A stretch of 50,922 nt of DNA from Escherichia phage AV106. The DNA is taken from sequence record OR352937.1. One strand, written 5' to 3'. The position numbers and the translations under genes were made by a program. The notes beneath the pieces are model-generated. The model saw nothing but the letters and a program-made list of their open reading frames with translations. It did no database searches and was not told the DNA's origin. Below, in pieces: positions 32,420-47,881 of this stretch (position 1 is the stretch's first letter; each line of letters begins with the position of its first letter).

Positions 32420-32424
32420 TCCTC

Positions 32425-32625
32425 TTATCCTTCATTTTCGATCGGTGTAAAAAACTGAGTGTTCACTGCCGGGTTATAATAAACTCCGTCGTCATAGTCG
32501 CTTTTTTTCACCTCGATAAAAACGTCGCAACCGTCATGCATGAAGTCACCATCATCAGTTTCAATAAGTTCGAATACTTCAGAAGTTTTATTGCATTTAA
32601 ACAACTTTCCAGCATATAACATCAT
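32425..32625 (-). CDS. Hypothetical acidic small protein
   Basis: 66 aa; preceded by the dyad motif, a hairpin and a -10 element. Confidence 0.4.
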   Translation of the reverse strand: MMLYAGKLFKCNKTSEVFELIETDDGDFMHDGCDVFIEVKKSDYDDGVYYNPAVNTQFFTPIENEG

Positions 32626-32657
32626 TTCGATTTTCTCTCTTTGTTGTCGATGAGGTA

Positions 32658-32703
32658 ACTATATCAAATCACCCCACCGACGTTTTAGCAATTCGCGCTA
32701 TTT
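32658..32703 (-). promoter_or_regulatory. Dyad-motif promoter
   Basis: AATAGCGCGAATTGCTAAAAC, 22 bp, TATAGT in a hairpin loop; upstream of ORF 32425..32625. Confidence 0.55.
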
Positions 32704-33270
32704 GTTGATGACCGTAGCGGCTATGTGCTGAGCGGTAATTTCTGGATGACCTTCGACAGAGAAGAAATCACACTCCTGATAACCATTAACCCCGATCATA
32801 TCTTCCAGGTAAATATAATCACGACTGTCGTTGTCAAAGTTGCAGCCTTTGCGGTGGATTCGGCATAGCTTGACCTGGATATCACCTTCAATCATCTGCA
32901 ATACCTCATCTTTGAATCCACCATCAGTAAATACTGACAGAGAATATGACTCTTTGACCTTGCTTTCCGCTCGCATACCGAAGAATCGATTTCCGAACTG
33001 TGGCTTGATGACTTCCTCGCTAATCCAGATCATAAACTGGCGAGGGCTTTTACCGTTCAGGATTGACGCTGGCTCTTCTTTGTAACGACGATCCTCATAC
33101 AAGAACATGAAATACTCGTAGTTAGTCTCACCCAGGATTGCCCGAGCAATCTCAAACATTGGTTCTTTGAAGCTGCGCAAAGCTACATGATCGTAAGTGT
33201 CAGCCAGGATGCATCCGATAGTGTCCTTGCCTGCTCCAGGGGCGCCGTTTAAAATGATAGCTGTTTTCAT
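32698..33270 (-). CDS. Deoxynucleoside monophosphate kinase (T4 gp1-like)
   Basis: 190 aa; P-loop NGAPGAGKDT; ILNGKSPRQFMIWISEE resembles T4 dNMP kinase YLNGKSPIKGVFVFDDE. Confidence 0.65.
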   Translation of the reverse strand: MKTAIILNGAPGAGKDTIGCILADTYDHVALRSFKEPMFEIARAILGETNYEYFMFLYEDRRYKEEPASILNGKSPRQFMIWISEEVIKPQFGNRFFGMRAESKVKESYSLSVFTDGGFKDEVLQMIEGDIQVKLCRIHRKGCNFDNDSRDYIYLEDMIGVNGYQECDFFSVEGHPEITAQHIAATVINK

Positions 33271-33271
33271 A

Positions 33272-33382
33272 TCAGTATCTCCCTAAAAATAATTTTGCCA
33301 TATTGATAATAGTGTGATTGATGATTAGCAGGATGATAACCGTCAATGCCGGATGTGCTGCAATAAATTCGTATAGGTTCAT
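33272..33382 (-). CDS. Hypothetical small hydrophobic peptide (36 aa, absent from the ORF track)
   Basis: ATGA overlap with the HAD gene stop; translates MNLYEFIAAHPALTVIILLIINHTIINMAKLFLGRY; its stop abuts the kinase start. Confidence 0.3.
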   Translation of the reverse strand: MNLYEFIAAHPALTVIILLIINHTIINMAKLFLGRY

Positions 33383-33912
33383 TTCTCTACCCCGTGCGAT
33401 TTTAAATGATCGTGAACGTTGTCGCCATAGTCAACTACAGCATATGTGGTTATTCCAAGCGACCGGAATAATGGAATAATTTGCGGTGAATCATCCCAAG
33501 CCGCGAGGATGTTTTCAATACCGATCGCTCGCACAGCTTCCTCTTTCATCACTGTGTCTTTCCGGTTGTCTGTGTGCGGTCGCATGACTAAGTAATCATA
33601 TCGCGCACCGTGATGCTTAAGCCACAACTCAGATGCGTAACGAACCTCATCACTTCGCCCGGTTAAAACTATTACGTGATACCCAGCGGCAAACATAGAG
33701 TTCATCACCTCAATCGTGCTCTGGATGGGGTTATCAAATATTGCGGCTCGATTAAACTCAGACCAGCTTTCAGTCAAGTGCAAATCCTTTGTTGGCAACA
33801 GGTGAAGGCGCTTTGATCCATCACTCAGTGTTCCGTCAAAGTCAAAGATTGCGACGCGGCGCGGACCGAGAAACAGGTTGATAGTTTGACCCCAAATTGT
33901 AATTTTATCCAT
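33379..33912 (-). CDS. HAD-superfamily phosphatase (nucleotidase-like)
   Basis: 177 aa; motif I FDFDGT near the N-terminus and downstream acidic motifs typical of HAD hydrolases. Confidence 0.6.
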   Translation of the reverse strand: MDKITIWGQTINLFLGPRRVAIFDFDGTLSDGSKRLHLLPTKDLHLTESWSEFNRAAIFDNPIQSTIEVMNSMFAAGYHVIVLTGRSDEVRYASELWLKHHGARYDYLVMRPHTDNRKDTVMKEEAVRAIGIENILAAWDDSPQIIPLFRSLGITTYAVVDYGDNVHDHLKSHGVEK

Positions 33913-33952
33913 TATTTATTCCTATGATTGGTTGCTTAACTCAACGAAGGGC

Positions 33953-33998
33953 ATTCTATCAAATGCCCTTGAGCAAGTTTTAGCAATTAGTGCTATTA
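33953..33998 (-). promoter_or_regulatory. Dyad-motif promoter
   Basis: AATAGCACTAATTGCTAAAAC, 22 bp, TAGAAT (preceded by TGa) in the loop of AAGGGCAT...ATGCCCTT; upstream of the HAD gene. Confidence 0.55.
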
Positions 33999-34442
33999 CC
34001 AGTAATCTACCTCGTAGTCAGCCCAGGCGTCAAAATCACTTTGGCAGAATGTGCCGCTATAATTTTCCATCATTTCATCGATCAGGAAGTAGCAGGACTC
34101 ACCGTTACGATAGAAGTATGAATCAGCAACGTTACGCGCCCAGCGCCCAGCATCCTTCTTGCTCATCTTCCAGTGCTTCATGGCGATTTTCTTAAATGCG
34201 CGAACAATACGCTTGCGGATCTTGACATTCTTGTACACAGCGTTGCATCCGTAAGCCATATATTCATTGTTGCCAAGATTCTGCATGATGTACGGATTAA
34301 CGTCTTTTGACGTAATCATCAGATCGCCATCGCCGCGACGCGCATCATAAATGCTTGCTGTCATGTAGTGGCCTTTGAACATTCCAATGCCGTGCAGAGT
34401 GTGTTCATCGTTAGGCGTTTCAATGCAGATTAAGTGTTTCAT
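33996..34442 (-). CDS. Hypothetical protein
   Basis: Start moved to ATG (MKHLICIE) behind RBS GAGGAAG; the track's N-terminal extension reads through the promoter hairpin. Confidence 0.45.
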   Translation of the reverse strand: MKHLICIETPNDEHTLHGIGMFKGHYMTASIYDARRGDGDLMITSKDVNPYIMQNLGNNEYMAYGCNAVYKNVKIRKRIVRAFKKIAMKHWKMSKKDAGRWARNVADSYFYRNGESCYFLIDEMMENYSGTFCQSDFDAWADYEVDYW

Positions 34443-34472
34443 GATCGCTTCCTCGTTTGTTGGTGTAGGGGA

Positions 34473-34518
34473 ATCATAGCGCATCCCCCTTGATAGGTTT
34501 TAGCAATTCGTGCTATTC
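34473..34518 (-). promoter_or_regulatory. Dyad-motif promoter
   Basis: AATAGCACGAATTGCTAAAAC, 22 bp, TATGAT in the loop of GGGGGA...TCCCC. Confidence 0.55.
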
Positions 34519-34718
34519 GTTTTAATAGTGATGCAAAAATAATTTTTTAAGCACGTTACCACGCGCGCTGAATCGACTTGTGGGAGCCTCAAAATTTCGT
34601 GGACCAATTGCACTGCCGACACCTCAGATTTGTAGTAGTGTGCGATTCTGGAGGTGTTTGGGCGCATTCCTTCCACCGCGTCACGCGCTGCATCTTCTGC
34701 TGTCATGATAGTAGCCAT
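34500..34718 (-). CDS. Hypothetical protein
   Basis: 72 aa. Confidence 0.35.
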   Translation of the reverse strand: MATIMTAEDAARDAVEGMRPNTSRIAHYYKSEVSAVQLVHEILRLPQVDSARVVTCLKNYFCITIKTNSTNC

Positions 34719-34821
34719 AAAACACCCTTAAGAGATAATGTCAGGACTAGGAGGCAGAATAGCAACTCCTGAAATGATGGCGGCTCGTTATTCCAGTTAT
34801 AAAAGTCTGGCATAGTGTTTT

Positions 34822-34860
34822 CTCCAAAAGAAAGGGGAACAGCTCAGAGTCGATTCCCCG
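34822..34860 (-). terminator. Terminator after ORF 34867..35505
   Basis: Minus strand GGGGAA...TTCCCC followed by TTTCTTTT. Confidence 0.45.
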
Positions 34861-34866
34861 TTAAAA

Positions 34867-35505
34867 TTACATGATGAACATCAGCGAAATCGAAGCTACC
34901 AGGAGAACAAGAGCAATAGCTAGGCCAGACAAGTCTGCTTTCTCTTCAAACTTCATTGCTGGCTTGCGGTCAACATTAATAGGCTTGACGTTGCTAATCT
35001 TGCTGGTGTTGATCTTGCCGTTGACGCGGAAAGTGCGATTGCGCTTCTTACCGAAAGTTGCGAACTTAGTGCCGCCACTGTTCCAACGAAGGCCTTCGCC
35101 ATTGTGAGTTACGGTTGCAATGCGGTGTCGGCCCGTGTCGTCGGTCAGCGCTACAGTGTGCTTTGCGTGCTCAGTAGGCACGTCGTAGATTTTGCCAACG
35201 GTAAATTTTTTGGTGTTATCACTGATACATTCGAATTTCATAAATCTTACCTCTTTATTATGCAGTTGGTTGATTGCTTCGATTACGTCGTTAAATTTAA
35301 CACCATCCACGATTCGATGGAAGATATATTTTGAGCTACCGCCATAAGGCAGGAAAATTTCCTGATATTCGTGACGCCGTACAACGTTCACGTTGCAACC
35401 GTTCTCATCAGTAATGATGAAGCTGTCATCATTTACGCGAACACCTTTGTAAGTTTTTCCCCACTTAAAACCAGATCCGCTACTTGATACGCACTCAAAT
35501 TTCAT
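34867..35505 (-). CDS. Membrane-anchored protein with internally duplicated domain
   Basis: 212 aa; two tandem domains starting MKFECVSSSGSGFKWGKTY and MKFECISDNTKKFTVGKIY; C-terminal transmembrane helix LSGLAIALVLLVASISLMFIM; terminator downstream. Confidence 0.45.
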   Translation of the reverse strand: MKFECVSSSGSGFKWGKTYKGVRVNDDSFIITDENGCNVNVVRRHEYQEIFLPYGGSSKYIFHRIVDGVKFNDVIEAINQLHNKEVRFMKFECISDNTKKFTVGKIYDVPTEHAKHTVALTDDTGRHRIATVTHNGEGLRWNSGGTKFATFGKKRNRTFRVNGKINTSKISNVKPINVDRKPAMKFEEKADLSGLAIALVLLVASISLMFIM

Positions 35506-35789
35506 GGTCTAACCTTCCTGTAAGGCTTGATTGATAACATCACGTATTGCGTGAAGTCGCATTCTTGCTCGTCATAACCGCGATTGATGTATGGCGTCAC
35601 GTCTGTAACATCGGACACCATGGCGTGAACTTCCCACCCGGTAAACTCGTCACGATCGAACTCGCGTAGCTCAAGGATATCACCAACCTGGAAGTTGCGG
35701 TCATTGACGCGGAACTCTGCCGTTTTGGTTCCGTTCATTACACCAATGAAATGTACCGGGGAGATTTTTAACTTATGAGTTTTGCTCAT
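35502..35789 (-). CDS. ASCH/DUF3850-like small protein
   Basis: 95 aa; N-terminal HKLKISPVHFIGVMNGTKTAEFRVNDRNFQVGDILELRE matches the ASCH-like pattern. Confidence 0.45.
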   Translation of the reverse strand: MSKTHKLKISPVHFIGVMNGTKTAEFRVNDRNFQVGDILELREFDRDEFTGWEVHAMVSDVTDVTPYINRGYDEQECDFTQYVMLSIKPYRKVRP

Positions 35790-36057
35790 CTTTCTTTACC
35801 TCGAATGTCACGTTCCAGAATTTATTGCCGCATGAGTGATAGATTACGTCCTGAGACGTGAGTTCGTGCAATGCGTGCCCGATAATCTCCATTCGGTCAT
35901 TCGGCGTCAGTCCGCGAAGCGATTCACGAAGGCGTGAGGCCTTGTCGTAAATCTGCCACTGCGTGAGTCGTGCAGCCATAGCTAATTCCTTATTTGCAAA
36001 ACGGGCAGGTTGATTTATTTCCGCTGCCGCCATGATTAGGGCAGCACACTTTCTCAA
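35773..36057 (-). CDS. Hypothetical protein (start uncertain)
   Basis: 94 aa in the track with a TTG start; first ATG is 8 codons in; overlaps a 25-aa Cys-rich ORF that carries the canonical leader. Confidence 0.3.
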   Translation of the reverse strand: MRKCAALIMAAAEINQPARFANKELAMAARLTQWQIYDKASRLRESLRGLTPNDRMEIIGHALHELTSQDVIYHSCGNKFWNVTFEVKKDEQNS

Positions 36058-36107
36058 TTGGTGTCATAACTGATTCCTCTGATTGGTTGCCATGCTTCAA
36101 TAAGGCC

Positions 36108-36153
36108 ACTATATCAAATGGCCTTGCGGAAGGTTTAGCAATTCGTGCTATCG
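36108..36153 (-). promoter_or_regulatory. Dyad-motif promoter
   Basis: GATAGCACGAATTGCTAAACC, 22 bp, TATAGT (preceded by TGa) in a hairpin, then leader AACCAATCAGAGGAATCAGTT-ATG. Confidence 0.55.
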
Positions 36154-36297
36154 TTTAACGCACATAGTTTTTACTTCATATCCGAACGGCTTGTTTTCTG
36201 CAATCACCTCCCGAGCTTTTTCGCATGATTGCTGACTTTCCATGTATACGTGATCCGGCCCGGTGCTCATCAAGATAATCAAGACCCATGCAGCCAT
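36148..36297 (-). CDS. Hypothetical small protein with hydrophobic N-terminus (49 aa, absent from the ORF track)
   Basis: TAATG overlap with the upstream gene; translates MAAWVLIILMSTGPDHVYMESQQSCEKAREVIAENKPFGYEVKTMCVKR; stop codon lies inside a dyad motif. Confidence 0.3.
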   Translation of the reverse strand: MAAWVLIILMSTGPDHVYMESQQSCEKAREVIAENKPFGYEVKTMCVKR

Positions 36298-36803
36298 TAT
36301 TTCACCTCATAGCGGACGAGCGTTCCGCGCTTAATGCTGATTTCACCTGACACAGTCTTGTTCTTGAAGCCGCCGTGATGCAATAGAATCGTGATGATAT
36401 CGTCGTGCACCTCAATAGTTTTTGGTGTCGCGGTAATCTCAATCCAAGAATCGCTGCTAATCTGGACACCTTTTATCGTTGCGCTAAGTGGCATGTTCTC
36501 GATCTGAGAGCACTGTAACGATGGTTTGATTTCTGGCGTTGCAGCCTTGAATATCGAGCCTCCAATCTTCCAGCTATCATACAAGCTGTAAGCATTATTA
36601 CCTTCACTCATAATGTAGTGGTAGTCCTTATTTGGTGAGTTTTCTTTATTCACTTCGTTATGTCTGGCAATAAACCACTCCAGCTTAAGTTGAGACACCT
36701 CATCAGTGGCCCACGTTCCCTTATCTTCACTGGTGAACGTAATTTCACCACATCCCATGCTGATAAATTTGATCGGGAATTTGACATCTTCTAATTTCAA
36801 CAT
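36297..36803 (-). CDS. Hypothetical protein
   Basis: 168 aa; RBS AAGAGGAAA; preceded by dyad motif and TGgTACAAT. Confidence 0.45.
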   Translation of the reverse strand: MLKLEDVKFPIKFISMGCGEITFTSEDKGTWATDEVSQLKLEWFIARHNEVNKENSPNKDYHYIMSEGNNAYSLYDSWKIGGSIFKAATPEIKPSLQCSQIENMPLSATIKGVQISSDSWIEITATPKTIEVHDDIITILLHHGGFKNKTVSGEISIKRGTLVRYEVK

Positions 36804-36831
36804 AATGATTTCCTCTTAGTGGTTGATATGG

Positions 36832-36879
36832 GGATTGTACCAGTCAGGACGAATCCCCTTTTAACAATTCGTGCTTAGT
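36832..36879 (-). promoter_or_regulatory. Dyad-motif promoter (24-bp spacing variant)
   Basis: CTAAGCACGAATTGTTAAAAG, 24 bp, TACAAT (preceded by TGg) in the loop of GGGGATT...AATCCCC. Confidence 0.5.
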
Positions 36880-37363
36880 AGACTAGCTCGCACTCAATAG
36901 AGAACGGTTCGGAGTCGCGATGGAAGAAGCAAAACGCTTCTTTATACATGCCACCAACAAATCCAACAGCCTTAAGTTGCTCATGGCTAACGTAGACAAG
37001 GTTGTTGGTAATTTCCTCAAAGTCAACAATAACCGGGAACGTGCGATTCTCATAACCAGGGCGCATAGGATACCCGCCATTGTTGAGAAGTCGAACCTTT
37101 CGCGGCTTGATGTTTGCCTGGACTTCCCATTCAAAAAAGAACATCGTTCCATCATTTTCGTTGAAGTCAGCCGGGCCAAATACTGGACTAACCGATAGGC
37201 CGTAATCCAGATCGTACACGCCAGCTTTTACAAGGTCGTCAACCTTGACGCGGTAGCCGCCAGTGCTATCATCGCACTTCACGGCGTCAACGATAATCGG
37301 GTCAGCTTCCAGGTCGCGAGTAAAGCCTTTGTAACCGCCAGTGCACAGTAATTTAATTTTCAT
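36875..37363 (-). CDS. Hypothetical protein
   Basis: 162 aa; RBS GAGGACGAG; preceded by dyad motif and TATAGT in a hairpin loop. Confidence 0.45.
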   Translation of the reverse strand: MKIKLLCTGGYKGFTRDLEADPIIVDAVKCDDSTGGYRVKVDDLVKAGVYDLDYGLSVSPVFGPADFNENDGTMFFFEWEVQANIKPRKVRLLNNGGYPMRPGYENRTFPVIVDFEEITNNLVYVSHEQLKAVGFVGGMYKEAFCFFHRDSEPFSIECELVY

Positions 37364-37394
37364 GTTCTCGTCCTCATTCGTTGTCGATGTGGTT

Positions 37395-37440
37395 ACTATA
37401 TCGCAACCACATGATCGCGTTTTAACAAAAAGTGCTATTC
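37395..37440 (-). promoter_or_regulatory. Dyad-motif promoter
   Basis: AATAGCACTTTTTGTTAAAAC, 22 bp, TATAGT in the loop of ATGTGGTT...AACCACAT. Confidence 0.55.
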
Positions 37441-37626
37441 TTTAATTTCGAAGCAATCCGTATCTTCATAGAATACCCAGGTATCGCCATTATCATCAAG
37501 CAATGAGATGTTACCGAAGCTGGTTAGCGAAGCGTTATAAGGCTTGTTGACAGTAAAGCACTCCTTTACTTCCTCATCTTCGCTACCTTTGAATAATGCA
37601 ATCATTTGGTGCATAAAATCAGCCAT
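37435..37626 (-). CDS. Hypothetical protein
   Basis: 63 aa. Confidence 0.4.
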   Translation of the reverse strand: MADFMHQMIALFKGSEDEEVKECFTVNKPYNASLTSFGNISLLDDNGDTWVFYEDTDCFEIKE

Positions 37627-37635
37627 TTTTAAATC

Positions 37636-37809
37636 CTATTTGCAAGTGATCTCATTTGATGTGATTGGTAGCAAAACGTTGCCAACCATCACAAACGTAG
37701 TAACCTGGTTCCCGGTCTTATGACAGCTATCTCTGACCTCTCCGCATCCTGACACTACCAGGATAGCCAGGGCGACCGCCGCCATCATGCAAATCAATAT
37801 TCGCATCAT
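37636..37809 (-). CDS. Small lipoprotein (57 aa)
   Basis: Start moved to ATG-ATG; signal peptide MMRILICMMAAVALAILVVSGC with lipobox LVVSGC; mature part has further Cys; ATGA overlap with the upstream peptide. Confidence 0.4.
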   Translation of the reverse strand: MMRILICMMAAVALAILVVSGCGEVRDSCHKTGNQVTTFVMVGNVLLPITSNEITCK

Positions 37810-37916
37810 TCGAACGCCCCAGCACACAGGAGAAGCATTACCACGATGCCGACCATAACGTGACCCATGCAGAAGAACCAGACGGCAGACCATAGAGCTA
37901 TTGTATTGAAGTTCAT
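37806..37916 (-). CDS. Small hydrophobic membrane peptide (36 aa, absent from the ORF track)
   Basis: ATGA overlap with stop of ORF 37913..38140, RBS GAGGTG; translates MNFNTIALWSAVWFFCMGHVMVGIVVMLLLCAGAFE; stop overlaps the lipoprotein start. Confidence 0.3.
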   Translation of the reverse strand: MNFNTIALWSAVWFFCMGHVMVGIVVMLLLCAGAFE

Positions 37917-38140
37917 TTTAGCACCTCGATCTTGTTGTCGCCGATTGAGTTTTCTACTACCGATTGCGGATCATCACCAGGAACGCGCATGTAAAAATTA
38001 CTCACCGCCGTGAAGTTCCATTGACCGCGCCACTTGAAATATAATCCGTTCTTTGCGCCTTTCGCGAAGTGAGTAGATTTAGCCGGGATCATGTGCCCGT
38101 TGACGCGGATTAGTTTGGTTAGGTTGCTGTAACGTGGCAT
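37913..38140 (-). CDS. Hypothetical protein
   Basis: 75 aa; RBS GAGGAA. Confidence 0.4.
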   Translation of the reverse strand: MPRYSNLTKLIRVNGHMIPAKSTHFAKGAKNGLYFKWRGQWNFTAVSNFYMRVPGDDPQSVVENSIGDNKIEVLK

Positions 38141-38146
38141 AATTAT

Positions 38147-38410
38147 TTATTCCTCAATTAAAGTGCTTATATCATCATAGCCCTGAAATTCACCATTCCA
38201 GATCAAGAAGCTAGTTACGCCCTCAATCTCAATCCACTTGCCATTCTCCTCTCGATACTCCTTGTAAATGTATGGGGAAAGCTCAATCACTGCATAGCGG
38301 CGATACTGCAAGCCACCATTGATGCTTGAGCAGTAGCGAGAAATGAAAATCGCGTGTTGCTTGTTGTGGCGAGTAGCTTCAATTGCGTTTCTATTCTTGA
38401 CGATTGACAT
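38147..38410 (-). CDS. Hypothetical protein
   Basis: 87 aa; leader CCAATCAGAGGA; preceded by dyad motif and TATAGT. Confidence 0.45.
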   Translation of the reverse strand: MSIVKNRNAIEATRHNKQHAIFISRYCSSINGGLQYRRYAVIELSPYIYKEYREENGKWIEIEGVTSFLIWNGEFQGYDDISTLIEE

Positions 38411-38449
38411 GGTGAATCCTCTGATTGGTATCTCGTTTTGATGGGGTAA

Positions 38450-38495
38450 CTATAGCAAGATACCCCGATCCGTTTTTAACAATTCGTGCTATTTG
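38450..38495 (-). promoter_or_regulatory. Dyad-motif promoter
   Basis: AATAGCACGAATTGTTAAAAAC, 22 bp, TATAGT (preceded by TGc) in the loop of GGGGTA...TACCCC. Confidence 0.55.
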
Positions 38496-38956
38496 GTAAG
38501 ATACTTCACGTTACTACCAGCAACCTCATTCCAGCCGTCATCAAAGAACACGCTGTAGCATGTTTCTGAGCGCTGTCGAATCTTCGATACGGTCCTCCAC
38601 ACTTTACGACCTGAGTAACCAGTCAGCACACGCATCCCTGGCAACAACTCACCAGACTTTCTCGCCTTAATGGTCACATCAGAATCAAGATCGAAAGACT
38701 CAAGATAGACCGGGTTAATCATATCGCACATGCGGCGCTCTTGCTCATCTTCACAATCGCAGCCATTGTTCGCCTTGATAGCTCCAATGAAGCAACCCAG
38801 CTTTTCAGTAAGTGAGCCTGCGCGGTATGAGTTGATATCAATAACCGTGTAGTGGCTGTACATGTGCCAGTGCGATCCGGTTTTGTGCTCAAACGCGAAG
38901 AATGACATTTCGCCATCAATCTCATCTTTAGCCAGGAATACGGTAATGGTTGTCAT
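38489..38956 (-). CDS. Hypothetical protein
   Basis: 155 aa; several Cys (CDCED...C). Confidence 0.4.
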   Translation of the reverse strand: MTTITVFLAKDEIDGEMSFFAFEHKTGSHWHMYSHYTVIDINSYRAGSLTEKLGCFIGAIKANNGCDCEDEQERRMCDMINPVYLESFDLDSDVTIKARKSGELLPGMRVLTGYSGRKVWRTVSKIRQRSETCYSVFFDDGWNEVAGSNVKYLTK

Positions 38957-38958
38957 GA

Positions 38959-39153: not shown

Positions 39154-39185
39154 CTTCTTTTCCTCTGTATCGTGTCGATGAGAAG

Positions 39186-39231
39186 ATAATACCCGATCCG
39201 CTCGACCGGGCTTTAACAAAAAGTGCTATTC
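39186..39231 (-). promoter_or_regulatory. Dyad-motif promoter
   Basis: AATAGCACTTTTTGTTAAAGC, 22 bp, TATTAT; upstream of ORF 38959..39153. Confidence 0.55.
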
Positions 39232-39486
39232 CATCAAAGTGAAGCAGCGAATTTTATTTGGCTTGAATAGGAATAGCTGGATGCCTTGCACCTTACCAAG
39301 ACTGATCATCTCTACGCCAAACTGTTTACGCACATACCGGACCAGCTCATCGGCTGGCGAACTCATCTGTAGTCCGAGGTGATGGAAACCGACAAACCCG
39401 TATGTTTCGGGGTTAAGCTGGAATGCCTCACCTGGATTGAGTTGCATCAATACACCTTTCAGGGAGTCATGCTTAATTTTGCTCAT
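39226..39486 (-). CDS. Hypothetical protein
   Basis: 86 aa; RBS GAGGAGAAG. Confidence 0.4.
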   Translation of the reverse strand: MSKIKHDSLKGVLMQLNPGEAFQLNPETYGFVGFHHLGLQMSSPADELVRYVRKQFGVEMISLGKVQGIQLFLFKPNKIRCFTLME

Positions 39487-39488
39487 GA

Positions 39489-40064
39489 TTACTTCTCCTC
39501 ATCCAGTAAATGTGAGCGGAATTGCTCGACCAGCTTATTGAGATCGGACACCGAGATATTGCTACCTTCAAAATCCCTCAAATCGATTTTGAACGCCTCA
39601 ACCTTCGCATTGAACACGTCGGCTATGCTCTTTCGCTTCCTACCTCTCTTGCCCTGTTTAGCTTCGCCTATGGCCTTCTCTGCTTCCTCGCCTTCGAGTT
39701 CGGTTATGAATATCGTCACCCCGTCAACCTGATCGCGGTTGATTCGCACAGATACGGCCTTATTGTGCGCCTTGAGCATGTGGCGCTTGATGATATTGGA
39801 CACGTACGACGCGGTGAGTCTCTCGAGCAACCAGGCTGATCGAGATGTGTACTCGTTAACGACTGCCTCATCGATCTGGTCATCGTTAAGTTCCACGCCC
39901 TGAGTAGCCTTTACAATCTCGGCCTGCTCATTGACGTACACTTCAACCATTTGCTTTCCAGTGACTGAGAAGTCATTCCCTGATTGGTGGATTTCAATCG
40001 CCTTTCGAATATAGTCCGGCAGGTTGAGTTCAAATTCTGTCACTTCTTTAAGCTGAGTTTTCAC
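39489..40064 (-). CDS. Hypothetical protein, first gene of the minus-strand early array
   Basis: 191 aa; GTG start with RBS GAGGT; C-terminal basic patch KQGKRGRKRK; adjacent to the repeat-rich control region. Confidence 0.4.
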   Translation of the reverse strand: MKTQLKEVTEFELNLPDYIRKAIEIHQSGNDFSVTGKQMVEVYVNEQAEIVKATQGVELNDDQIDEAVVNEYTSRSAWLLERLTASYVSNIIKRHMLKAHNKAVSVRINRDQVDGVTIFITELEGEEAEKAIGEAKQGKRGRKRKSIADVFNAKVEAFKIDLRDFEGSNISVSDLNKLVEQFRSHLLDEEK

Positions 40065-40111
40065 TTGTCTATACCTCGTTGTCTATGGGTGTAACTTTCA
40101 ACTTCGAAAAA

Positions 40112-40141
40112 CATGTTACAGCTACAACGTCAGGCGCGTCA
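40112..40141 (-). promoter_or_regulatory. Candidate sigma70-like promoter for the first minus-strand early gene
   Basis: Minus strand TTGACG, 18-bp spacer, TAACAT, about 40 nt upstream of the GTG start at 40064. Confidence 0.35.
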
Positions 40142-40348
40142 ATGTCTATAGCTGCATTTTTTATTTTTGTAACCAGTGCAACCGATGCAACCGACTTTTT
40201 CTATAAAAGTAAGCACATCTATTTATGCGCGCGGAATAGTATGTTTTTTATACTATGCATCACGAAATATATGCCACCATCAAAAAATGCGGTTGCACCT
40301 ATTACGCCGATTACATACCAATATATAATATAATAAATAAATAAATAT

Positions 40349-40427
40349 ATATTATCTATCTTATTATTATATATAGATATTTTATTATATATAGGCCCAT
40401 CGACTCGCTGGCCATTTTGTAACACCC
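40349..40427. repeat. AT-rich control module, copy B
   Basis: Same two anchor sequences (13 bp and 14 bp identical) with the same 52-bp spacing as copy A. Confidence 0.6.
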
Positions 40428-40677
40428 CTGATGGTATACAACTATTACGACAATTACAACTACCGCATAGACGAATAGCACGTTTTGCTAAAAATGGAGA
40501 TGACTACAAGGCGAACCGGGTAACACTAGATCCTCCCTCTCACAATCATTGCATTCCAAGCAACAATCACATCAACAGTTGCACATCATGCAACAATCAC
40601 ATTTCATCATTCGGGATCAATCAGGATCGCAATTATTCCAGATATTCCATTGCTGGTGGAATAATGAGCAACTATTG

Positions 40678-40724
40678 GAATAGCATTTTTTGCTAACGAC
40701 TTGGTCAGGCTGGCAGTGTATGAT
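40678..40724 (+). promoter_or_regulatory. Dyad-motif promoter for the C5-methyltransferase gene
   Basis: AATAGCATTTTTTGCTAACG, 23 bp, TATGAT, then leader CATCAACCAATCAGTAGGAGA. Confidence 0.5.
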
Positions 40725-40757
40725 TCATCACATCAACCAATCAGTAGGAGATTTGCA

Positions 40758-41462
40758 ATGAAATTAATCTGGTCGCTATTCGACGGTTCCGGTCTTGCTG
40801 GTCATGAACTGGCTAAGCAAGGTCACAAGGTGATGTGCTTCAACTTTGACGGAGCCGATCACGGGGATTATGCAAAGTACAATGCCCGGGTGGAGCATCC
40901 GAACATTGAGTATGTGAACGTGTTCATTGACGCAGCGTTTGAGCGTGATGCTATCGCTGGCGTGTATGGCAAGCCGGATTTCATTATGGCCTTCCCGCCG
41001 TGCACTGACCTGGCTGTTAGTGGTGCCGCTCACTTCGCAAGAAAGCGTGAACGCGATCCGTTATTCCAGGAGAAGGCTGTTGCCACCGCCCGGATTACTG
41101 CAAATATTGGCGACGCCCTGGGCGTGACTTACATCATTGAGAATCCGGTTAGCGTCCTGTCATCTGCCTGGAGAAAACCAAATCACTCCTTCAATCCCTG
41201 GGAGTATGGCGGCTATCTTCCTGAGAATGACTCACACCCCTGGTTCCCTATGTATATTGCGCCGCGCGATGCTTACCCGAAGAAAACTTGTCTGTGGACC
41301 TCTGACGATTTTGTCATGCCTGAAAGAAAACCTGTAAGCCTACCTGACGGGTACTCTGCACAGCACAGTAAGCTAGGCGGCAAATCTGCCAAAACTAAGT
41401 TGATACGATCCCTGTCGCCGCGTGGATTTTTCAAAGCGATCGCAAATAGCACTTTTTGTTAA
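40758..41462 (+). CDS. DNA (cytosine-5) methyltransferase, short Dcm-like
   Basis: Start moved to ATG behind a dyad-motif promoter and leader; motif I LFDGSGLAG (FxGxG), motif IV FPPC (catalytic Pro-Cys), motif VI IENPV (ENV-like). Confidence 0.55.
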   Translation: MKLIWSLFDGSGLAGHELAKQGHKVMCFNFDGADHGDYAKYNARVEHPNIEYVNVFIDAAFERDAIAGVYGKPDFIMAFPPCTDLAVSGAAHFARKRERDPLFQEKAVATARITANIGDALGVTYIIENPVSVLSSAWRKPNHSFNPWEYGGYLPENDSHPWFPMYIAPRDAYPKKTCLWTSDDFVMPERKPVSLPDGYSAQHSKLGGKSAKTKLIRSLSPRGFFKAIANSTFC

Positions 41463-41489
41463 AACTCGATCGGTGTGATTTGGCATAAT
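41445..41489 (+). promoter_or_regulatory. Dyad-motif promoter
   Basis: AATAGCACTTTTTGTTAAAAC, 22 bp, CATAAT; overlaps the 3' end of the methyltransferase ORF. Confidence 0.55.
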
Positions 41490-41522
41490 TACCTCATCGA
41501 AACGAGATTGAGGAAAAACAAA

Positions 41523-41708
41523 ATGGCACGTCGCATCACTAAAGACCTTAAAGTTCTGAACAAAGAAAACGTAGTTAAAATTCTGGTTATTTGGGGGTAC
41601 AACGAAGAATCAGCAAAGCAGAAGGTAGAAGCGGGTTACGATCTGGCTGTCAAAGCGATGCCTAACGACGACGCAAAAGGCATTGCAAACTATGTATCAT
41701 TCTTTTAA
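41523..41708 (+). CDS. Hypothetical small protein
   Basis: Start moved to ATG (MARRITKDL) after dyad motif, CATAAT and RBS GAGGAAAAA. Confidence 0.4.
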   Translation: MARRITKDLKVLNKENVVKILVIWGYNEESAKQKVEAGYDLAVKAMPNDDAKGIANYVSFF

Positions 41709-41723
41709 TTAACGGGCTAACAA

Positions 41724-41909
41724 ATGAAAACGAAATTAGTGCATAAATCAGAAATCAAGATAGGCGACACTGTGATTCACAACGGAGAGCTTAGAACTGT
41801 TGGTAAGGAGTCAATAACCAAAGATGAATTTATGGGGTTATTGTTGTTCGGCGACTCTTATCGCTTGGGTTACAAAATGGTTGAGCTTGTTGAGGAAGTA
41901 AAATTCTAA
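41724..41909 (+). CDS. Hypothetical small protein
   Basis: 61 aa. Confidence 0.35.
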   Translation: MKTKLVHKSEIKIGDTVIHNGELRTVGKESITKDEFMGLLLFGDSYRLGYKMVELVEEVKF

Positions 41910-41953
41910 ATAGCACGAATTGCTAAACGCCCCGAGGGGAATCGGGGTATAGT
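41908..41953 (+). promoter_or_regulatory. Dyad-motif promoter
   Basis: AATAGCACGAATTGCTAAACG, 22 bp, TATAGT in the loop of CCCCGA...TCGGGG, then leader CATCAACCAATCAGGAGA. Confidence 0.55.
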
Positions 41954-41984
41954 GAACACATCAACCAATCAGGAGAATCGCCAG

Positions 41985-42215
41985 ATGGCAATCAAACATC
42001 CCGGATTAAAGAAAGCAATCCAGCGAGCAAATGACGAGGGATTTATTGTATATCGCACACATTACGGTCACATGGGTGGACTTAAAGAGCATCATACAAA
42101 GGTTGAGCTTGTGGACTTGTGGGAGGATTACGATACATTCCAGTACATCGCCACGTCTGACGTAGAGGCGCAAGTGAAATACATCAATGACACTATTGAT
42201 AGCTTCAGAGGGTAA
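41985..42215 (+). CDS. Hypothetical protein
   Basis: Start moved to ATG (MAIKHPGL) behind leader AACCAATCAGGAGAATCGCCAG; dyad motif and TATAGT upstream. Confidence 0.45.
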   Translation: MAIKHPGLKKAIQRANDEGFIVYRTHYGHMGGLKEHHTKVELVDLWEDYDTFQYIATSDVEAQVKYINDTIDSFRG

Positions 42216-42219
42216 TTAT

Positions 42220-42591
42220 ATGTTTAAGCATTTCACAGATCTGGACTTCTCAGCCAGCACAGCAATCCAGACTGACGAGAAAGAAAGCGTAGCGATCGAG
42301 AACATCGCGCGCAAGATTTACAATAAGCAAGAGAAGGCCGTGAGAGCAGCTCTAACCGCCTATTATGGTGTAAGTGATGCAATGGAGTGCGTGAACCGAG
42401 TAACGCGCGTGGTGGACCATTCTGGCGTTTCTCGCTTCGTCGATAAAGATACTGGCGAGACAATCATTCAGCTAAACAATCCATCAATGCGTACTGAGTT
42501 AGGAAATATTGCACTGTGGGGAGTTGCTAACTATTCAATCACCGTTAACTCATGTGTAGCGGATCGCGTTAAGGAGGCATTGTATGAGTGA
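42220..42591 (+). CDS. Hypothetical protein
   Basis: Start moved to ATG (MFKHFTDL) behind RBS AGAGGG. Confidence 0.4.
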   Translation: MFKHFTDLDFSASTAIQTDEKESVAIENIARKIYNKQEKAVRAALTAYYGVSDAMECVNRVTRVVDHSGVSRFVDKDTGETIIQLNNPSMRTELGNIALWGVANYSITVNSCVADRVKEALYE

Positions 42592-42798
42592 TAATATTTA
42601 CCGCGTAGTGGCGATCTCACGTAAGACTCAGAAAAAAGTAATTGCCTACATGGGGAATAGCGCCATTGAAGCTACAGACGCTTTCGAATTGCTAAAGAAT
42701 AACGAATGATTTATGAACACGTTCCGAGTTCGACTTGAGCGCCTTGAACCTGTTATTATTGACGAATCGAGAAAGCTATCCTGACTGGTTAGGGGGGG

Positions 42799-43122
42799 AT
42801 GATGAACCACACTTACAAAATCACAACGAAATCACCGAAGATTAACGGAAGTACGGTAGTCGCACTGAATAACGCGGCAGCAATCCACGAAAAAAACATC
42901 ATGGAGCGCGTTAAGGCGGCGGTGGGCCGATTCTACGGAATAAACGCTGATATTGCCGACAGCAAACGACTGTTCAAATACGTGCCAGGCCATCCGTACA
43001 GTCGGATGATCGACATTAAGCATGATAAAGAACTGGTTAGAATCGGATCGCTTAGCATTGACGAGTTCGACCATAACATTAACCTTGTAACGGCGTATCA
43101 AACTTGGGACGGTAAAAAATGA
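42799..43122 (+). CDS. Hypothetical protein
   Basis: 107 aa; RBS GGGGGGATG. Confidence 0.4.
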   Translation: MMNHTYKITTKSPKINGSTVVALNNAAAIHEKNIMERVKAAVGRFYGINADIADSKRLFKYVPGHPYSRMIDIKHDKELVRIGSLSIDEFDHNINLVTAYQTWDGKK

Positions 43123-43260
43123 TTTATATTCACACTTTCTATACTGGCAAATTTAACAGAGTAAAAAATGTTCGCGTTTACGATAGCCACCAAAAAGCAA
43201 TGATGCAGAAAGTAGTTCTAGGTGGAACAATCAAAGAGTGCAAAGTAATTTCTGAGTACT

Positions 43261-43306
43261 GATAGCACGAATAGCTAAAGACAATAAATAGGGAGTAAGG
43301 TATATT
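43261..43306 (+). promoter_or_regulatory. Dyad-motif promoter
   Basis: GATAGCACGAATAGCTAAAG, 23 bp, TATATT. Confidence 0.5.
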
Positions 43307-43338
43307 ACTCACACACCAAACAAACAAAGGAATTAAAA

Positions 43339-43563
43339 ATGAGCATTAAAGTTGAGAATATCATCAAGCACCTGAACGCGAAAGGCCGTGTAGTTATAAA
43401 AATGGATAAGTCTTCCGGCTTTATTTCAATGACGGTAACTAAGACTCGTAACGGTAATAACGTTATCGGCAGCACGCCAGGCTCGCGCTTAGTAAATGCA
43501 ACAGATGCCGATGTTCGTGCTACGCTTGAAGCAAACTCAATTTATATTAATTCGTGGAGTTAA
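43339..43563 (+). CDS. Hypothetical protein
   Basis: 74 aa; dyad motif and TATATT upstream. Confidence 0.4.
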   Translation: MSIKVENIIKHLNAKGRVVIKMDKSSGFISMTVTKTRNGNNVIGSTPGSRLVNATDADVRATLEANSIYINSWS

Positions 43564-43566
43564 TTA

Positions 43567-43776
43567 ATGGAGCAGGATAATTTTTGGACCCGTTATTTTG
43601 CAGCGCTTGATGCTGGACTTAGTGCCGAATGGTGCATCAAGGTTGCATATAAAGAAATAACACTTGATGAGGCTCTTGGCGATATGGATATGAATGCTGA
43701 AAGCGAATACGATCCTAACTTTGAATTACCTAGTGATGATATTAATGAAGACGACGACGATTATACTCCCTGGTAA
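43567..43776 (+). CDS. Hypothetical acidic protein
   Basis: 69 aa; very acidic C-terminus (EDDDDYTPW). Confidence 0.4.
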   Translation: MEQDNFWTRYFAALDAGLSAEWCIKVAYKEITLDEALGDMDMNAESEYDPNFELPSDDINEDDDDYTPW

Positions 43777-43820
43777 ATAGCACGATTTGTTAATATTGCC
43801 GTAAGGTCATTTGATAAAGT
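43776..43820 (+). promoter_or_regulatory. Dyad-motif promoter
   Basis: AATAGCACGATTTGTTAAT, 22 bp, TAAAGT (preceded by TGa) in the loop of AAGGTCA...TGACCTT, then leader AACCAATCAGGAATT. Confidence 0.55.
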
Positions 43821-43856
43821 GACCTTATTCAAGATAACCAATCAGGAATTAACGAA

Positions 43857-44273
43857 ATGAAATCCATCAAACTGAAATGTACTCACGCAGATAAAATCAC
43901 AGGATTTGAAGTAAACAACATATACAAAGGTCGTGAGCGCTATGATGGCACTCGCGAAGTAAAATTAAAATGCGGGAAGTATTTAAAACTTGAAAAGCAT
44001 GATGAATTACAGATTCACGGATCTGATGAAATTTTCTTCGCGAAGTTCACTGAGTTGAAAACAAAGACGCTCAAGTGCACCGGGCTTGACCATCGCAACC
44101 CAATGAAAAAATCATTCAAAGTTGGCAAGCGTTACCAGGTTGAAAGCGGTCGCGCTCTCGGTGGCGTAGCTGGTTACATCTTTGATGAAGATGGTTGTCG
44201 CTGGACCTTATTTCGCGAAGAGGTTGGTTTTAGTATCGCAGACGGCACAACCTTTGAGGCCAAATACTTATAA
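43857..44273 (+). CDS. Hypothetical protein
   Basis: 138 aa; leader AACCAATCAGGAATTAACGAA; dyad motif and TAAAGT upstream. Confidence 0.45.
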   Translation: MKSIKLKCTHADKITGFEVNNIYKGRERYDGTREVKLKCGKYLKLEKHDELQIHGSDEIFFAKFTELKTKTLKCTGLDHRNPMKKSFKVGKRYQVESGRALGGVAGYIFDEDGCRWTLFREEVGFSIADGTTFEAKYL

Positions 44274-44275
44274 CC

Positions 44276-44320
44276 AATAGCACTTTTTGCAAAACGCGTG
44301 TACCATTGGCGGTGTATCAT
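44276..44320 (+). promoter_or_regulatory. Dyad-motif promoter
   Basis: AATAGCACTTTTTGCAAAACG, 22 bp, TATCAT in the loop of CGGTGTA...TACACCG. Confidence 0.55.
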
Positions 44321-44349
44321 TTACACCGTCAACTAAGGAGTTTATTGTG

Positions 44350-45918
44350 ATGTTTAATATTAAGCCAAAACTGAATTACCAACAGATTATTGAGATCGCC
44401 AATAGCACTGGAGTTAATCCGGTGGCGATCGCAATTCGTGAAAACAGCTATGGTGACTCAGTTTCATTTTGGCAAGATCCGATCGATATCAATAGCGGCA
44501 ACGATAAGTTCCCTCTGATTTCGTTAGGTGGCGATAACCTGGTATTCGAATATGCAAAAGCAAAGGCCGAGTCTGTACAGTTCCCTGTTTCGTCTGCGTA
44601 CGCTCATTTCATTGGGTGCATATCAGCCGCGATGCTCGGGAAGTTTTGGGTGCAATATCACGGAGAAGAACAACCAACCGCTCTTTACATGGTAATCAGC
44701 CAGCCACCGTCAACAGGTAAATCTGCGATTAACTCCGCAGCGATTACGCCTATGCGCGCAGAGATTCAGCGACTGAATGAAGAGCGAAAAAAGGAACGTA
44801 TCCGTTTAACCAGTCAGCTACGTCAGGTCGAGAAGGAAATTAAAAACGACCCGAAGGGTAACACGACGGCAGCGCTATACGAGGACAAGGAAAAACTGGA
44901 AGAAAAGATCAAGAAGATGGCTGATATTGTTTTCGCTGTATCAGATCCTACACCTGAAGGTCTTGCGAAGGTGGCGGCTGTTCAAGGTCACTTCTCAGTA
45001 ATCTCTGATGAGGCGACAGCAATCAACACATTGCTCGGCCTGACTTATGGCGGCTCTGATAAGAAATCAAACAGCGAACTTATCCTTAAGGCGTGGGATA
45101 AAAACCATATGGAGGTCGCGCGTTCAAACCAAGACAACAACTTATCTCTTTGCCCGGTCGGTTCGATCTGCGTCATTGCGCAGGATGAAACAATCAAGGG
45201 TATCATGGACGCAGGCCAGCGAGGCATCGGCGTATCTGAGCGTTTCCTTTTAGTTCGTGAGGAGCCGCTTTTAGGTACTCGTATTCTTTGTGATGAAAAT
45301 GGTGATGCGCTGTATAAGGAAGTCGATCGAGGATTGGTGAGTAAATATTATCGACTCGTGCACAACATCATGAAAGAGGATAACGTTGTTCTCTCTGTAA
45401 GCCGTAATGCTATGCGTGAATTAAACCTTGCGCGTCAGGCTATGGAACCGGATTTCGCCGCAGGTGGGAAATACTCTCACTCAATGCTACGCGGTCATCT
45501 CGGCAAGTTCGATAAGCACGCCTTGCGTATTGCTTCAGTTCTCCACACGATCAAAAATTGGGATGGTGAATCACCGAACCGTTCCAACCGTGAGATTGAC
45601 CTTGAAACGATGCAGGAAGCAATCATGATCTTCAATGAGCTTTCCAGGACTTATCTGTCGTCTGCCAGCGCTGCCGGGTATGCAGGTGATGAGGCTGAAT
45701 CTCGTAAGCTGATTGATGTTATCACTGAGATCGCGAAGAAGAACAAAGGCCGCGCACCTATTCATAGCATCGTTGCAAAGTGCCGGAACGTTACTCCGTT
45801 CAACGGTCAACAGAAAGTATCTGAGAGAATAGATAGCCTGCTGATCACGCTCGAAGAGATGAACTACACTTGCCGCATTGATGATATTGTTTTCATCAAT
45901 CCTAGACTGATGGGTTAA
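44350..45918 (+). CDS. P-loop NTPase, candidate replication or helicase-loader ATPase
   Basis: Start moved to ATG behind RBS AAGGAG; Walker A-like QPPSTGKSA; long Lys/Glu-rich helical segment. Confidence 0.4.
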   Translation: MFNIKPKLNYQQIIEIANSTGVNPVAIAIRENSYGDSVSFWQDPIDINSGNDKFPLISLGGDNLVFEYAKAKAESVQFPVSSAYAHFIGCISAAMLGKFWVQYHGEEQPTALYMVISQPPSTGKSAINSAAITPMRAEIQRLNEERKKERIRLTSQLRQVEKEIKNDPKGNTTAALYEDKEKLEEKIKKMADIVFAVSDPTPEGLAKVAAVQGHFSVISDEATAINTLLGLTYGGSDKKSNSELILKAWDKNHMEVARSNQDNNLSLCPVGSICVIAQDETIKGIMDAGQRGIGVSERFLLVREEPLLGTRILCDENGDALYKEVDRGLVSKYYRLVHNIMKEDNVVLSVSRNAMRELNLARQAMEPDFAAGGKYSHSMLRGHLGKFDKHALRIASVLHTIKNWDGESPNRSNREIDLETMQEAIMIFNELSRTYLSSASAAGYAGDEAESRKLIDVITEIAKKNKGRAPIHSIVAKCRNVTPFNGQQKVSERIDSLLITLEEMNYTCRIDDIVFINPRLMG

Positions 45919-47852: not shown

Positions 47853-47881
47853 GAAATACCCTCTTTGTTTTCTATGTGGTC

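Follow-up and report, generated by a model that had tools for sequence, protein, structure and literature searches.

The 50,922-nucleotide sequence of Escherichia phage AV106 (OR352937.1), referred to below as the window, is a complete genome of a T1-like phage (Drexlerviridae). Its gene order agrees with that of T1 over the full window, and a sequence search with the 12.5 kb around the region considered here gave matches in 371 phage records. The top matches, at about 90% nucleotide identity, were to Tunavirus and T1-like siphoviruses, such as DELF2, IME18, pSf-2 and SA12KD. The non-coding stretch at 40065-40700 is the counterpart of the physical ends of the T1 genome (T1 coordinate 1 falls at 40594/5), and two arms of small genes run outward from it. 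Around 20 intercistronic cassettes of one fixed layout, found by searching for a conserved upstream box, are present in the window, 15 of them within 32625-44350. These cassettes are the subject of this study. A first-pass annotation, made from the sequence without database searches, had described the early region as repeated promoter-hairpin-leader-gene modules, a description that the 15 units support. The whole window contained no Rfam family at gathering thresholds, and a tRNA scan was also empty.

The anatomy of the cassettes was defined from a sample of 175 distinct examples from T1, SA12KD and IMG/VR contigs with at least three boxes, numbered with the first A of ATAGCAC as position 0. 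A cassette is about 75 nt long and comprises, in order, the end of the upstream open reading frame (ORF), the box, a 20-nt variable spacer, the element (T)GnTATAAT, a discriminator of about 5 nt, a CA start, a leader, a Shine-Dalgarno (SD) sequence and an ATG. The box is a 17-18 bp pseudo-palindrome, ATAGCAC-N3-TTGYTAA(A), with ATAGCAC at positions 0-6, TTG at 10-12 and TAAA at 14-17, and contains invariant G and C. Beyond the spacer, position 36 is G in 145 of the 175 cassettes and TATaaT occupies positions 38-43 (A39 in 155, T43 in 149), followed by the start dinucleotide CA at 49-50 (C49 in 129, A50 in 144). The leader is A/C-rich, with a median length of 25 nt. Relative to the conserved CA, the box spans -50 to -33 and is centred at about -41.5, and its distance from the -10 hexamer is constant to the base in approximately 85% of the cassettes. 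The stop codon of the upstream ORF is the TAG of the box in 68 of 126 cassettes and its TAA triplet in 26 more, and the ORF ends in the window show the same pattern. The stop triplets correspond to box positions 1-3, 7-9 and 14-16 (e.g., 38491-38489, 34502-34500 and 41460-41462). By supplying stop codons, the box thus causes upstream ORFs to finish inside the promoter element of the following gene.

The box is identical to a published 21-nt direct repeat, aaATAGCACnnnTTGnTAAAA, which occurs in 21 copies in phage TLS, about 76 nt before start codons, and was also reported in T1, Rtp and Rogue1 (PMC11447400). The consensus, the orientation with the genes, the number of copies (≈20) and the distance of about 75 nt to the starts all agree. 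This correspondence had escaped the first-pass annotation. The TLS authors offered a stoperator, an enhancer site or an UP element as possible functions of the repeat, and made no link between it and a fixed-distance -10, hairpins or upstream stop codons (PMC11447400). The repeat was therefore already known; what is added here is that the fixed-distance -10, the hairpins and the upstream stop codons are tied to it.

In the 175 cassettes, nothing is conserved between -35 and -30. A scan of 32000-45000 for canonical -35/-10 promoters found 25, compared to 25.1 expected, a chance-level result that agrees with the TLS authors' finding of only three sigma-70-like promoters (PMC11447400). In the -10 region, G-14 is present in 83% of the cassettes, T-15 in 49%, A-11 in 89% and T-7 in 85%. 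As judged by these base frequencies, the conserved positions are the signature of a sigma-70 -10 element with a partial TG extension and a predicted start 7 nt downstream. That the box and the -10 are a constant distance apart speaks for stereospecific polymerase contact rather than a mere roadblock. By geometry alone, the centre of the box corresponds to that of a class II activator site; activation of PRM by lambda CI, like that by class II activators, works from about -42. Two other assignments were considered and rejected. If TTGYTA were a -35, the spacer to the -10 would be 22 bp, and the bases 17 bp downstream of it are not -10-like. In a sigma-54 reading of TAGCAC-N3-TTGC, the spacing is 3 nt rather than 5, and a strong sigma-70-type -10 is present.

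The segment from the box to just beyond the start folds with a mean free energy (dG) of -11.7, compared to -5.4 for shuffled sequences, and 77% of the 175 cassettes reach -8 or lower. In 49 of the 175 (class A), the spacer holds the entire hairpin, whose last base is also the first one of the -10. In 87 (class B), the 3' half of the spacer pairs with the discriminator and the -10 sits in the loop, the 3' arm ending at -1 in 40 of the 87. The stems thus use only positions that are free of promoter information, leaving the -10 in the loop. Within 32625-44350, ten of the 15 cassettes are of class B, with the -10 inside or straddling the loop, two are of class A, and three (40475, 40680 and 41446) have little or no hairpin (Table 1). 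The proposal that the -10 lies in a hairpin loop in most of these promoters is thereby upheld. Three of the hairpins originally quoted in its favor were found as described, all on the minus strand: GGGGTA-tcttgctatagt-TACCCC at 38466-38443, ATGTGGTT..AACCACAT at 37412-37387 and AAGGGCAT..ATGCCCTT at 33970-33947. The fourth, near 41930, is present as GCCCCGA-ggggaa-TCGGGGT at 41929-41948 (+); it precedes the -10 and does not surround it. Ten stems from the window were folded individually, giving z scores from -1.4 to -6.4; for eight of them, no more than 1 in 200 dinucleotide shuffles reached a comparable stability.

The hairpins are selected as sense-strand structures. The sense strand is the more stable one in 114 of the 173 cassettes in which the strands differ and the antisense strand in 59 (mean dG -11.7 versus -10.1; Wilcoxon p = 6e-8). 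The class A tetraloops are of the GNRA or UNCG type in 17 of 23 cases when read in the sense direction and in none when read antisense, and G-U accounts for 11% of the hairpin pairs. Taken together, these observations indicate RNA, or at least the sense strand, rather than duplex DNA. Pairing is kept while the stem sequence varies between cassettes, with 15 different stems in the window alone. In the orthologous hairpin upstream of the polynucleotide kinase gene, 98.4% of alignment cells are paired, and two of the eight pairs have undergone compensatory double changes, for which G-U intermediates are seen. This is where the check for compensatory changes suggested in the first-pass annotation gave a positive answer; among close orthologues there were none, and that comparison is uninformative (see below). 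RNAalifold, applied to mixed-register orthologues, recovered just four stem pairs and the dyad of the box itself.

Judging by the conserved -10 and CA, transcription would begin at the 3' arm or immediately beyond it. A cassette's own transcript should consequently be without the hairpin, which would be found only in RNA arriving from upstream; this goes against the idea that transcripts start in such a way as to have the hairpin in their leader. Hairpins are more stable when they closely follow the end of a co-directional ORF (dG -13.3, n = 118) than when they do not (-9.5, p = 0.011), the latter group comprising only 14 cassettes, some of which may lie behind small genes. Weak or absent hairpins are found in the two units heading the rightward arm and in the helicase unit. 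The stem-loops are G+C-rich, like those of intrinsic terminators, and SA12KD annotators labelled the hairpins of the orthologous region rho-independent terminators. In the 8 nt after the stem, however, there are on average only 1.2 T in class B and 3.5 in class A, both short of the five or more that define a U-tract, so that most hairpins do lack one, as had been noted at the outset. In Klebsiella-type relatives (loci L140-L166), a bare GGCCCC-GCGA-GGGGCC hairpin is found ahead of the kinase gene, flanked by the stop codon and the SD, with no box, -10 or U-tract, showing that hairpins exist without the promoter too. Most likely, the hairpins exert their effect in read-through RNA, either by attenuation or by forming 3' ends.

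Table 1. Cassettes and related elements in the window (coordinates are given in the direction of the stated strand; box, copy of the direct repeat; hairpins are given as 5' arm / 3' arm).
Unit	Position	Strand	Box	Hairpin	-10	Leader and other features	Start codon
Cassette	32626..32701	-	32701-32685	class B, 32681-32667 / 32660-32646 (dG -22.4, z -6.4)	TATAGT 32663-32658	inferred start A 32651	ATG 32625
Cassette before polynucleotide kinase	33913..33996	-	33996-33980	class B, 33970-33961 / 33956-33947	TAGAAT 33958-33953	leader variant ACCAATCAT 33932-33924	ATG 33912
Cassette	34443..34516	-	34516-34500; its TAA is the upstream ORF stop	class B, 34490-34483 / 34474-34467	TATGAT 34478-34473		ATG 34442
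Cassette	36065..36151	-	36151-36135	class B, 36125-36117 / 36110-36102	TATAGT 36113-36108	ACCAATCAG 36087-36079, against SD	ATG 36067
Cassette	36804..36877	-	variant TAAGCAC.., 36877-36861	GGGGAT 36858-36853 / ATCCCC 36835-36830, long loop	TACAAT 36839-36834		ATG 36803
Cassette	37364..37438	-	37438-37422	class B, 37412-37403 / 37396-37387 (ATGTGGTT..AACCACAT)	TATAGT 37400-37395		ATG 37363
Cassette	38411..38492	-	38492-38476; its TAG is the upstream ORF stop	class B, 38466-38461 / 38448-38443	TATAGT 38454-38449	ACCAATCAG 38429-38421	ATG 38410
Cassette	39154..39229	-	39229-39213	class A, 39211-39204 / 39198-39191	TATTAT 39191-39186, after hairpin		ATG 39153
Box copy in long non-coding region, head of rightward arm	40475..40491	+	40475-40491	none	none convincing at standard distance		
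First rightward cassette	40680..40757	+	40680-40696	none (dG -4.3)	TATGAT 40719-40724	ACCAATCAG 40736-40744	ATG 40758
Cassette	41446..41522	+	41446-41462; its TAA ends upstream methylase ORF	weak, 41475-41480 / 41487-41492	CATAAT 41484-41489		ATG 41523
Cassette	41910..41984	+	41910-41926	class A, 41929-41935 / 41942-41948	TATAGT 41948-41953	ACCAATCAG 41964-41972	ATG 41985
Cassette	43262..43338	+	43262-43278	GAGTAA 43293-43298 / TTACTC 43305-43310, around -10	TATATT 43301-43306		ATG 43339
Cassette	43777..43856	+	43777-43793	class B, 43801-43812 / 43817-43828 (z -5.5)	TAAAGT 43815-43820	ACCAATCAG 43837-43845	ATG 43857
Cassette before DUF3987 ATPase gene	44277..44346	+	44277-44293	class B, 44306-44316 / 44322-44332	TATCAT 44315-44320		44347
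Cassette before recombinase gene, outside 32625-44350	7632..7705	-	variant, 7705-7689	7677-7669 / 7662-7654, around -10	TATAAT	ACCAATCAG 7651-7643	ATG 7631
Helicase cassette	2443..2524	-	2524-2508		TATTAT 2486-2481, overlapping divergent TATAAT 2480-2485 (+)		
Cassette	47853..47925	-	variant, 47925-47909	class A, CCCGAA-ggga-TTCGGG 47903-47888	TATATT, after hairpin		ATG 47852
Cassette	49838..49913	-	49913-49897	class A, TACCCGGC-gaaa-GTCGGGTA 49893-49874	TATAGT, after hairpin		ATG 49837
Late-region ACCAATCAG leader copy	20118..20126	-	inverted copy 20129-20145 (+) precedes			against SD of gene	20107

Some of the units have additional features. A 25-codon, Cys-rich ORF, MTPIEKVCCPNHGGSGNKSTCPFCK, opens after the cassette at 36151 (36067-35990, minus strand) and resembles a mini zinc ribbon, and the gene after it begins at 35979. 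The stretch that corresponds to the T1 genome ends contains an almost pure A/T run of about 75 bp (40320-40395) and a Chi site, GCTGGTGG, on the plus strand at 40652-40659, one of only two Chi sites in the genome. In the late region, within 20129-20185 (+), an inverted box, ATGGCACTTTTTGTTAA, lies between a terminator and the ACCAATCAG leader of the late gene, and TGaTACGAT follows at the usual spacing. Possible roles are those of an antisense promoter directed into the major-tail gene and of an operator within the late 5' untranslated region (UTR).

The box of the helicase cassette also abuts the SD of a divergent gene (2537-2989, plus strand) that encodes a 150-aa Cro-like helix-turn-helix (HTH) protein, and the -10 hexamers of the two genes overlap within 2465-2540 (Table 1). 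When loci from distant relatives were gathered with the helicase as the query, a box against the SD of a divergent Cro-like gene was found at 60+ distinct loci, down to 57% helicase identity. The protein itself has a weak match to P22_Cro (E = 5.5e-5, below the curated cutoff), and a PDB sequence search with it gave no meaningful match. The divergent arrangement is kept family-wide, in all lineages covered, and makes this protein a candidate activator at the box and repressor of its own gene, although we would put this at well short of even; direct recognition of the box by host polymerase or a host factor is possible as well. The box also has a putative resemblance to the Lrp consensus. Within 2973-3040 (plus strand), the regulator gene ends in a box-like sequence, ATAGCATTTTTAGTTAA, that supplies its final codons and stop; a canonical terminator including a T-tract comes next, directly ahead of the primase gene.

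The leaders fall into two dominant types, one with CATCGAAACGAA.., seen in 43 of the 175 cassettes, and one with ..ACCAATCAG, seen in 25. The first-pass annotation had listed eight places for a shared leader word, and the word was found at all of them: as exact ACCAATCAG at 7651-, 20126-, 36087-, 38429-, 40736+, 41964+ and 43837+, and, near 33915, as the variant ACCAATCAT. The word always adjoins the SD, at a variable 4-14 nt from the transcription start, in otherwise unrelated leaders, and is thus selected in its own right and not merely copied with the cassette. It is not, on the other hand, a leader element alone. The window contains 15 exact copies, where about 0.6 would be expected, and eight of these are inside genes, seven of them antisense to the gene. 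ACCAATCAG is a subset of a 9-base motif, ACCNNTCAG, the most over-represented motif of the genome, which is found across the window on both strands.

The window contains 52 copies of ACCNNTCAG compared to 6-7 expected, and no other gapped motif comes close to this excess (z = 17). Genes contain 22 copies in the sense direction and 25 in the antisense direction, whereas shuffling of synonymous codons leaves 3.9 in each. Shuffles of synonymous codons and of codon order, together with a control on E. coli DNA, ruled out that the excess stems from codon usage or protein sequence. The motif occurs 47 times in T1 and 36 times in TLS, and the density is 0.80/kb in T1-like contigs versus 0.096/kb in unrelated viral contigs, with no excess in E. 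coli DNA. Comparison of the window with T1 shows 40 of 44 orthologous sites retained, with 97.7% identity at the seven specified bases, 92.3% in the flanks and 93.2% at the two N positions. The sites are evenly spaced, with a coefficient of variation of the gaps of 0.64 overall and ≈0.45 per strand (P < 0.001), corresponding to about 2 kb per strand. Strands alternate, so that 40 of 52 neighbours differ in strand compared to 26.5 expected. The gap from a minus site to the next plus site averages 0.37-0.57 kb and the opposite gap 1.3-2.0 kb in the window, T1 and TLS (P ≈ 0.002 each). This inequality shows that the sites form back-to-back pairs, 0.1-0.6 kb apart (e.g., 128- and 200+, 20126- and 20267+, 22203- and 22238+, 38429- and 38618+), of which the leader copies are the gene-ward members.

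This paired, genome-wide motif is the most novel result of the analysis. A literature search on the motif and on Drexlerviridae transcript maps gave nothing useful. Our leading guess is that ACCNNTCAG may be a priming or replisome-loading signal. The primase encoded at 3051-3986 has a zinc ribbon of the T7 gp4 type (PF08273, E = 5.6e-16). Tentatively, the motif might therefore constitute family-wide 9-bp sites from which DNA synthesis or the loading of replisomes proceeds outward both ways, read by the T7-type primase or by the DUF3987 ATPase/HTH pair, a proposal in which we place only limited confidence. Since the CAG-purine tail doubles as an SD, leaders would be cheap spots for such a site. 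In one cassette type (36847-36839, minus strand, and loci L165, L174 and L193), the reverse form of the motif, CTGAYTGGT, lies in the hairpin loop, its last T doubling as the first base of the -10 (CTGACTGGTACAAT); in the window, this is the long loop of the 36804-36877 hairpin, which holds CTGACTGGT.

Alignment with T1 over 30-51 kb of the window gave 16 break ends, of which 8-9 lie in or at cassettes, although these cover only about 8% of the sequence (rough binomial ≈1e-5). The cassette-associated ends are at 36064, 37440, 38493, 40475, 40737, 44271/6, 47889 and 47931, and break ends relative to SA12KD are found at the cassettes at 36065 and 41909. The kinase cassette is present in some lineages, absent from T1, and represented by only the bare GNRA hairpin in the Klebsiella-type relatives. 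A recombination role, raised in the first-pass annotation for the shared leader, is thus plausible. With approximately 45 conserved bases common to every cassette, the units may also serve as crossover points for ORF shuffling.

We consider it fairly probable that these units are composite intercistronic promoter/attenuator cassettes, functionally equivalent to the units of T4-like phages known as promoter-early stem-loops (PeSLs). The host sigma-70 RNA polymerase would use the -10, while the box would stand in for the -35, either as a class II-like activator site or through direct polymerase contact; the best candidate for an activator would be the phage's own Cro-like HTH protein. The hairpin, built from the free positions of the spacer alone (class A) or of the spacer and discriminator (class B), would fold in read-through RNA from the upstream cassette and would either attenuate transcription or fix or protect the 3' end of the upstream message. 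Several observations weigh against this interpretation. The start site is inferred solely from conservation; T-15, present in only about half of the cassettes, makes "extended -10" a partial description; and a required phage activator would imply another early promoter, none of which was clearly identified. Class B hairpins have no U-tract, those of class A a partial one, and only one cassette hairpin, at 39154-39229, passes a standard terminator-like scan, so that efficient intrinsic termination is doubtful and at most leaky termination would be expected. In close orthologues among IMG/VR fragments, 15 one-sided changes kept a pair, 16 broke one and none were compensatory, an uninformative result, and the comparison by upstream ORF depends on the small group of 14. 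Protection of 3' ends explains the hairpins equally as well as leaky termination. The hairpins may accordingly be 3'-end protectors or processing landmarks that block 3'-5' exonucleases without stopping transcription, giving each cistron's message its own half-life, an alternative that we regard as possible but not probable. The lack of a U-tract in class B, the use of stable GNRA and UNCG loops, the promoterless, U-tract-free hairpin between the equivalent genes in Klebsiella-type relatives and the stronger hairpins where an upstream ORF is present would all fit; yet the U/A-rich -10 follows directly after the class A stems, and PeSL stem-loops of similar design attenuated transcription in reporters (PMC2839356). 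This alternative departs from the promoter/attenuator interpretation only in what happens at the hairpin.

It is very improbable that the inverted repeats act in DNA, as a cruciform (as suggested in the first-pass annotation) or by altering the melting of the -10 and discriminator so as to tune promoter opening. The arms do flank the -10 closely, and the class B 3' arm coincides with the discriminator, in nearly half of the cases up to -1. However, the strand preference in stability and the occurrence of GNRA and UNCG loops on the sense strand only speak against a DNA structure, and each G-T pair is an A-C mismatch on the opposite strand. Class A hairpins exclude the -10 altogether, the inverted repeat is missing from the head-of-arm promoters, and cruciforms extrude poorly where stems are 6-10 bp long and loops span 6-14 nt. 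The box, for its part, could be a repressor site (a stoperator or shut-off operator) instead of a positive promoter element, a possibility raised by the TLS authors (PMC11447400). A 17-bp pseudo-palindrome is typical of Cro/CI operators, and inverted copies are found between promoter and SD at 2508-2524 and 20129-20145. We nevertheless consider this unlikely, because the fixed distance to the -10 in most cassettes would be needless for a roadblock and there is no -35 that could drive the promoters without the box. The roles are also compatible, as a single protein might serve as an activator at -42 and as a repressor in a 5' UTR. Finally, ACCAATCAG in leaders might do no more than enhance translation or extend the ribosome-binding site, with no relation to the in-gene copies. 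Every leader copy has the AA variant and, in the 25 cassettes concerned, directly adjoins the SD (ACCAATCAGGAG or ACCAATCAGAGGA), and UCAGGAG is one base off the ideal UAAGGAG complementary to the 16S 3' end. This seems rather doubtful, given that the same word and flank preference are selected within genes on both strands, that conservation between T1 and the window is confined to the seven specified bases, and that the leader copies join in the back-to-back pairing of the in-gene copies.

T1-like phages are common coliphages and candidates for therapy, and their annotators report almost no promoters. The cassette model provides a rule for about 20 promoters per genome (box at -50 to -33, (T)GnTATAAT, CA start), accounts for the "terminators" repeatedly predicted within promoters, and nominates a testable activator/operator pair. 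It would also mean that a siphovirus family using another type of promoter evolved, independently, the cassette design of T4-like myoviruses, which would support cassette-mediated ORF shuffling as a general phage strategy. If tied to replication, ACCNNTCAG would be a novel type of signal, spread over the whole genome, in a classical phage about whose replication little is understood.

Three known systems can be compared with these elements. The primers made by T7 gp4 are pppACCA, pppACCC and pppACAC. ACCNNTCAG likewise begins with ACC (ACCA in 64% of copies), the phage encodes a primase with a gp4-type zinc ribbon, and the spacing of about 2 kb per strand is near the length of an Okazaki fragment. 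In contrast, ACCNNTCAG has nine positions, seven of them specified, compared to 4-5 in T7, and occurs in back-to-back pairs, which are not needed for lagging-strand priming. The box resembles the sites of promoters activated from near -42 (lambda CI at OR2/PRM, CRP class II, Mu Mor/C), which have a dyad-like site at about -41.5/-42, a poor or missing -35 and a good -10. In both, a regulator gene, here that of the candidate Cro-like protein, also runs divergently from the same site. The T1-like box differs in having about 20 target promoters per genome, in its imperfect dyad, and in that the binding protein is a candidate only.

The closest counterparts are the PeSLs of T4-like phages (RB49/phi1, PST and nt-1), which, like the T1-like cassettes, are compact units of stop codon, promoter, stem-loop, SD and start codon (PMC2839356, PMC4122927). 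In RB49/phi1 the order is upstream stop codon, AT-rich region, -35, -10, SD and start codon, with the stem-loop mostly between -35 and -10 or overlapping the -10 and G-T pairs included in the stem (PMC2839356). Promoter and terminator/attenuator activity of PeSLs was observed in lacZ fusions (PMC2839356), and recombination between PeSLs shuffles ORFs (PMC2839356, PMC4122927). The T1-like cassettes share the host-type promoter with a stem-loop in the spacer or over the -10, the G-T pairs in the stems, the many copies amid small variable ORFs and the indel or replacement junctions at the units. Terminator activity and mini-circle formation have been demonstrated for PeSLs, whereas the T1-like units are described here from their nucleotide sequences. 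The hosts of the T1-like units are siphoviruses of another family, and there is no sequence relationship between the two kinds of unit. Most importantly, an ordinary -35 preceded by AT-rich DNA is found in PeSLs, whereas the T1-like units have no -35 and carry a G/C-containing, 17-18 bp pseudo-palindrome at -50 to -33. Because the ordinary -35 promoter is missing, the T1-like units are a variant of the PeSL design rather than members of the PeSL group.

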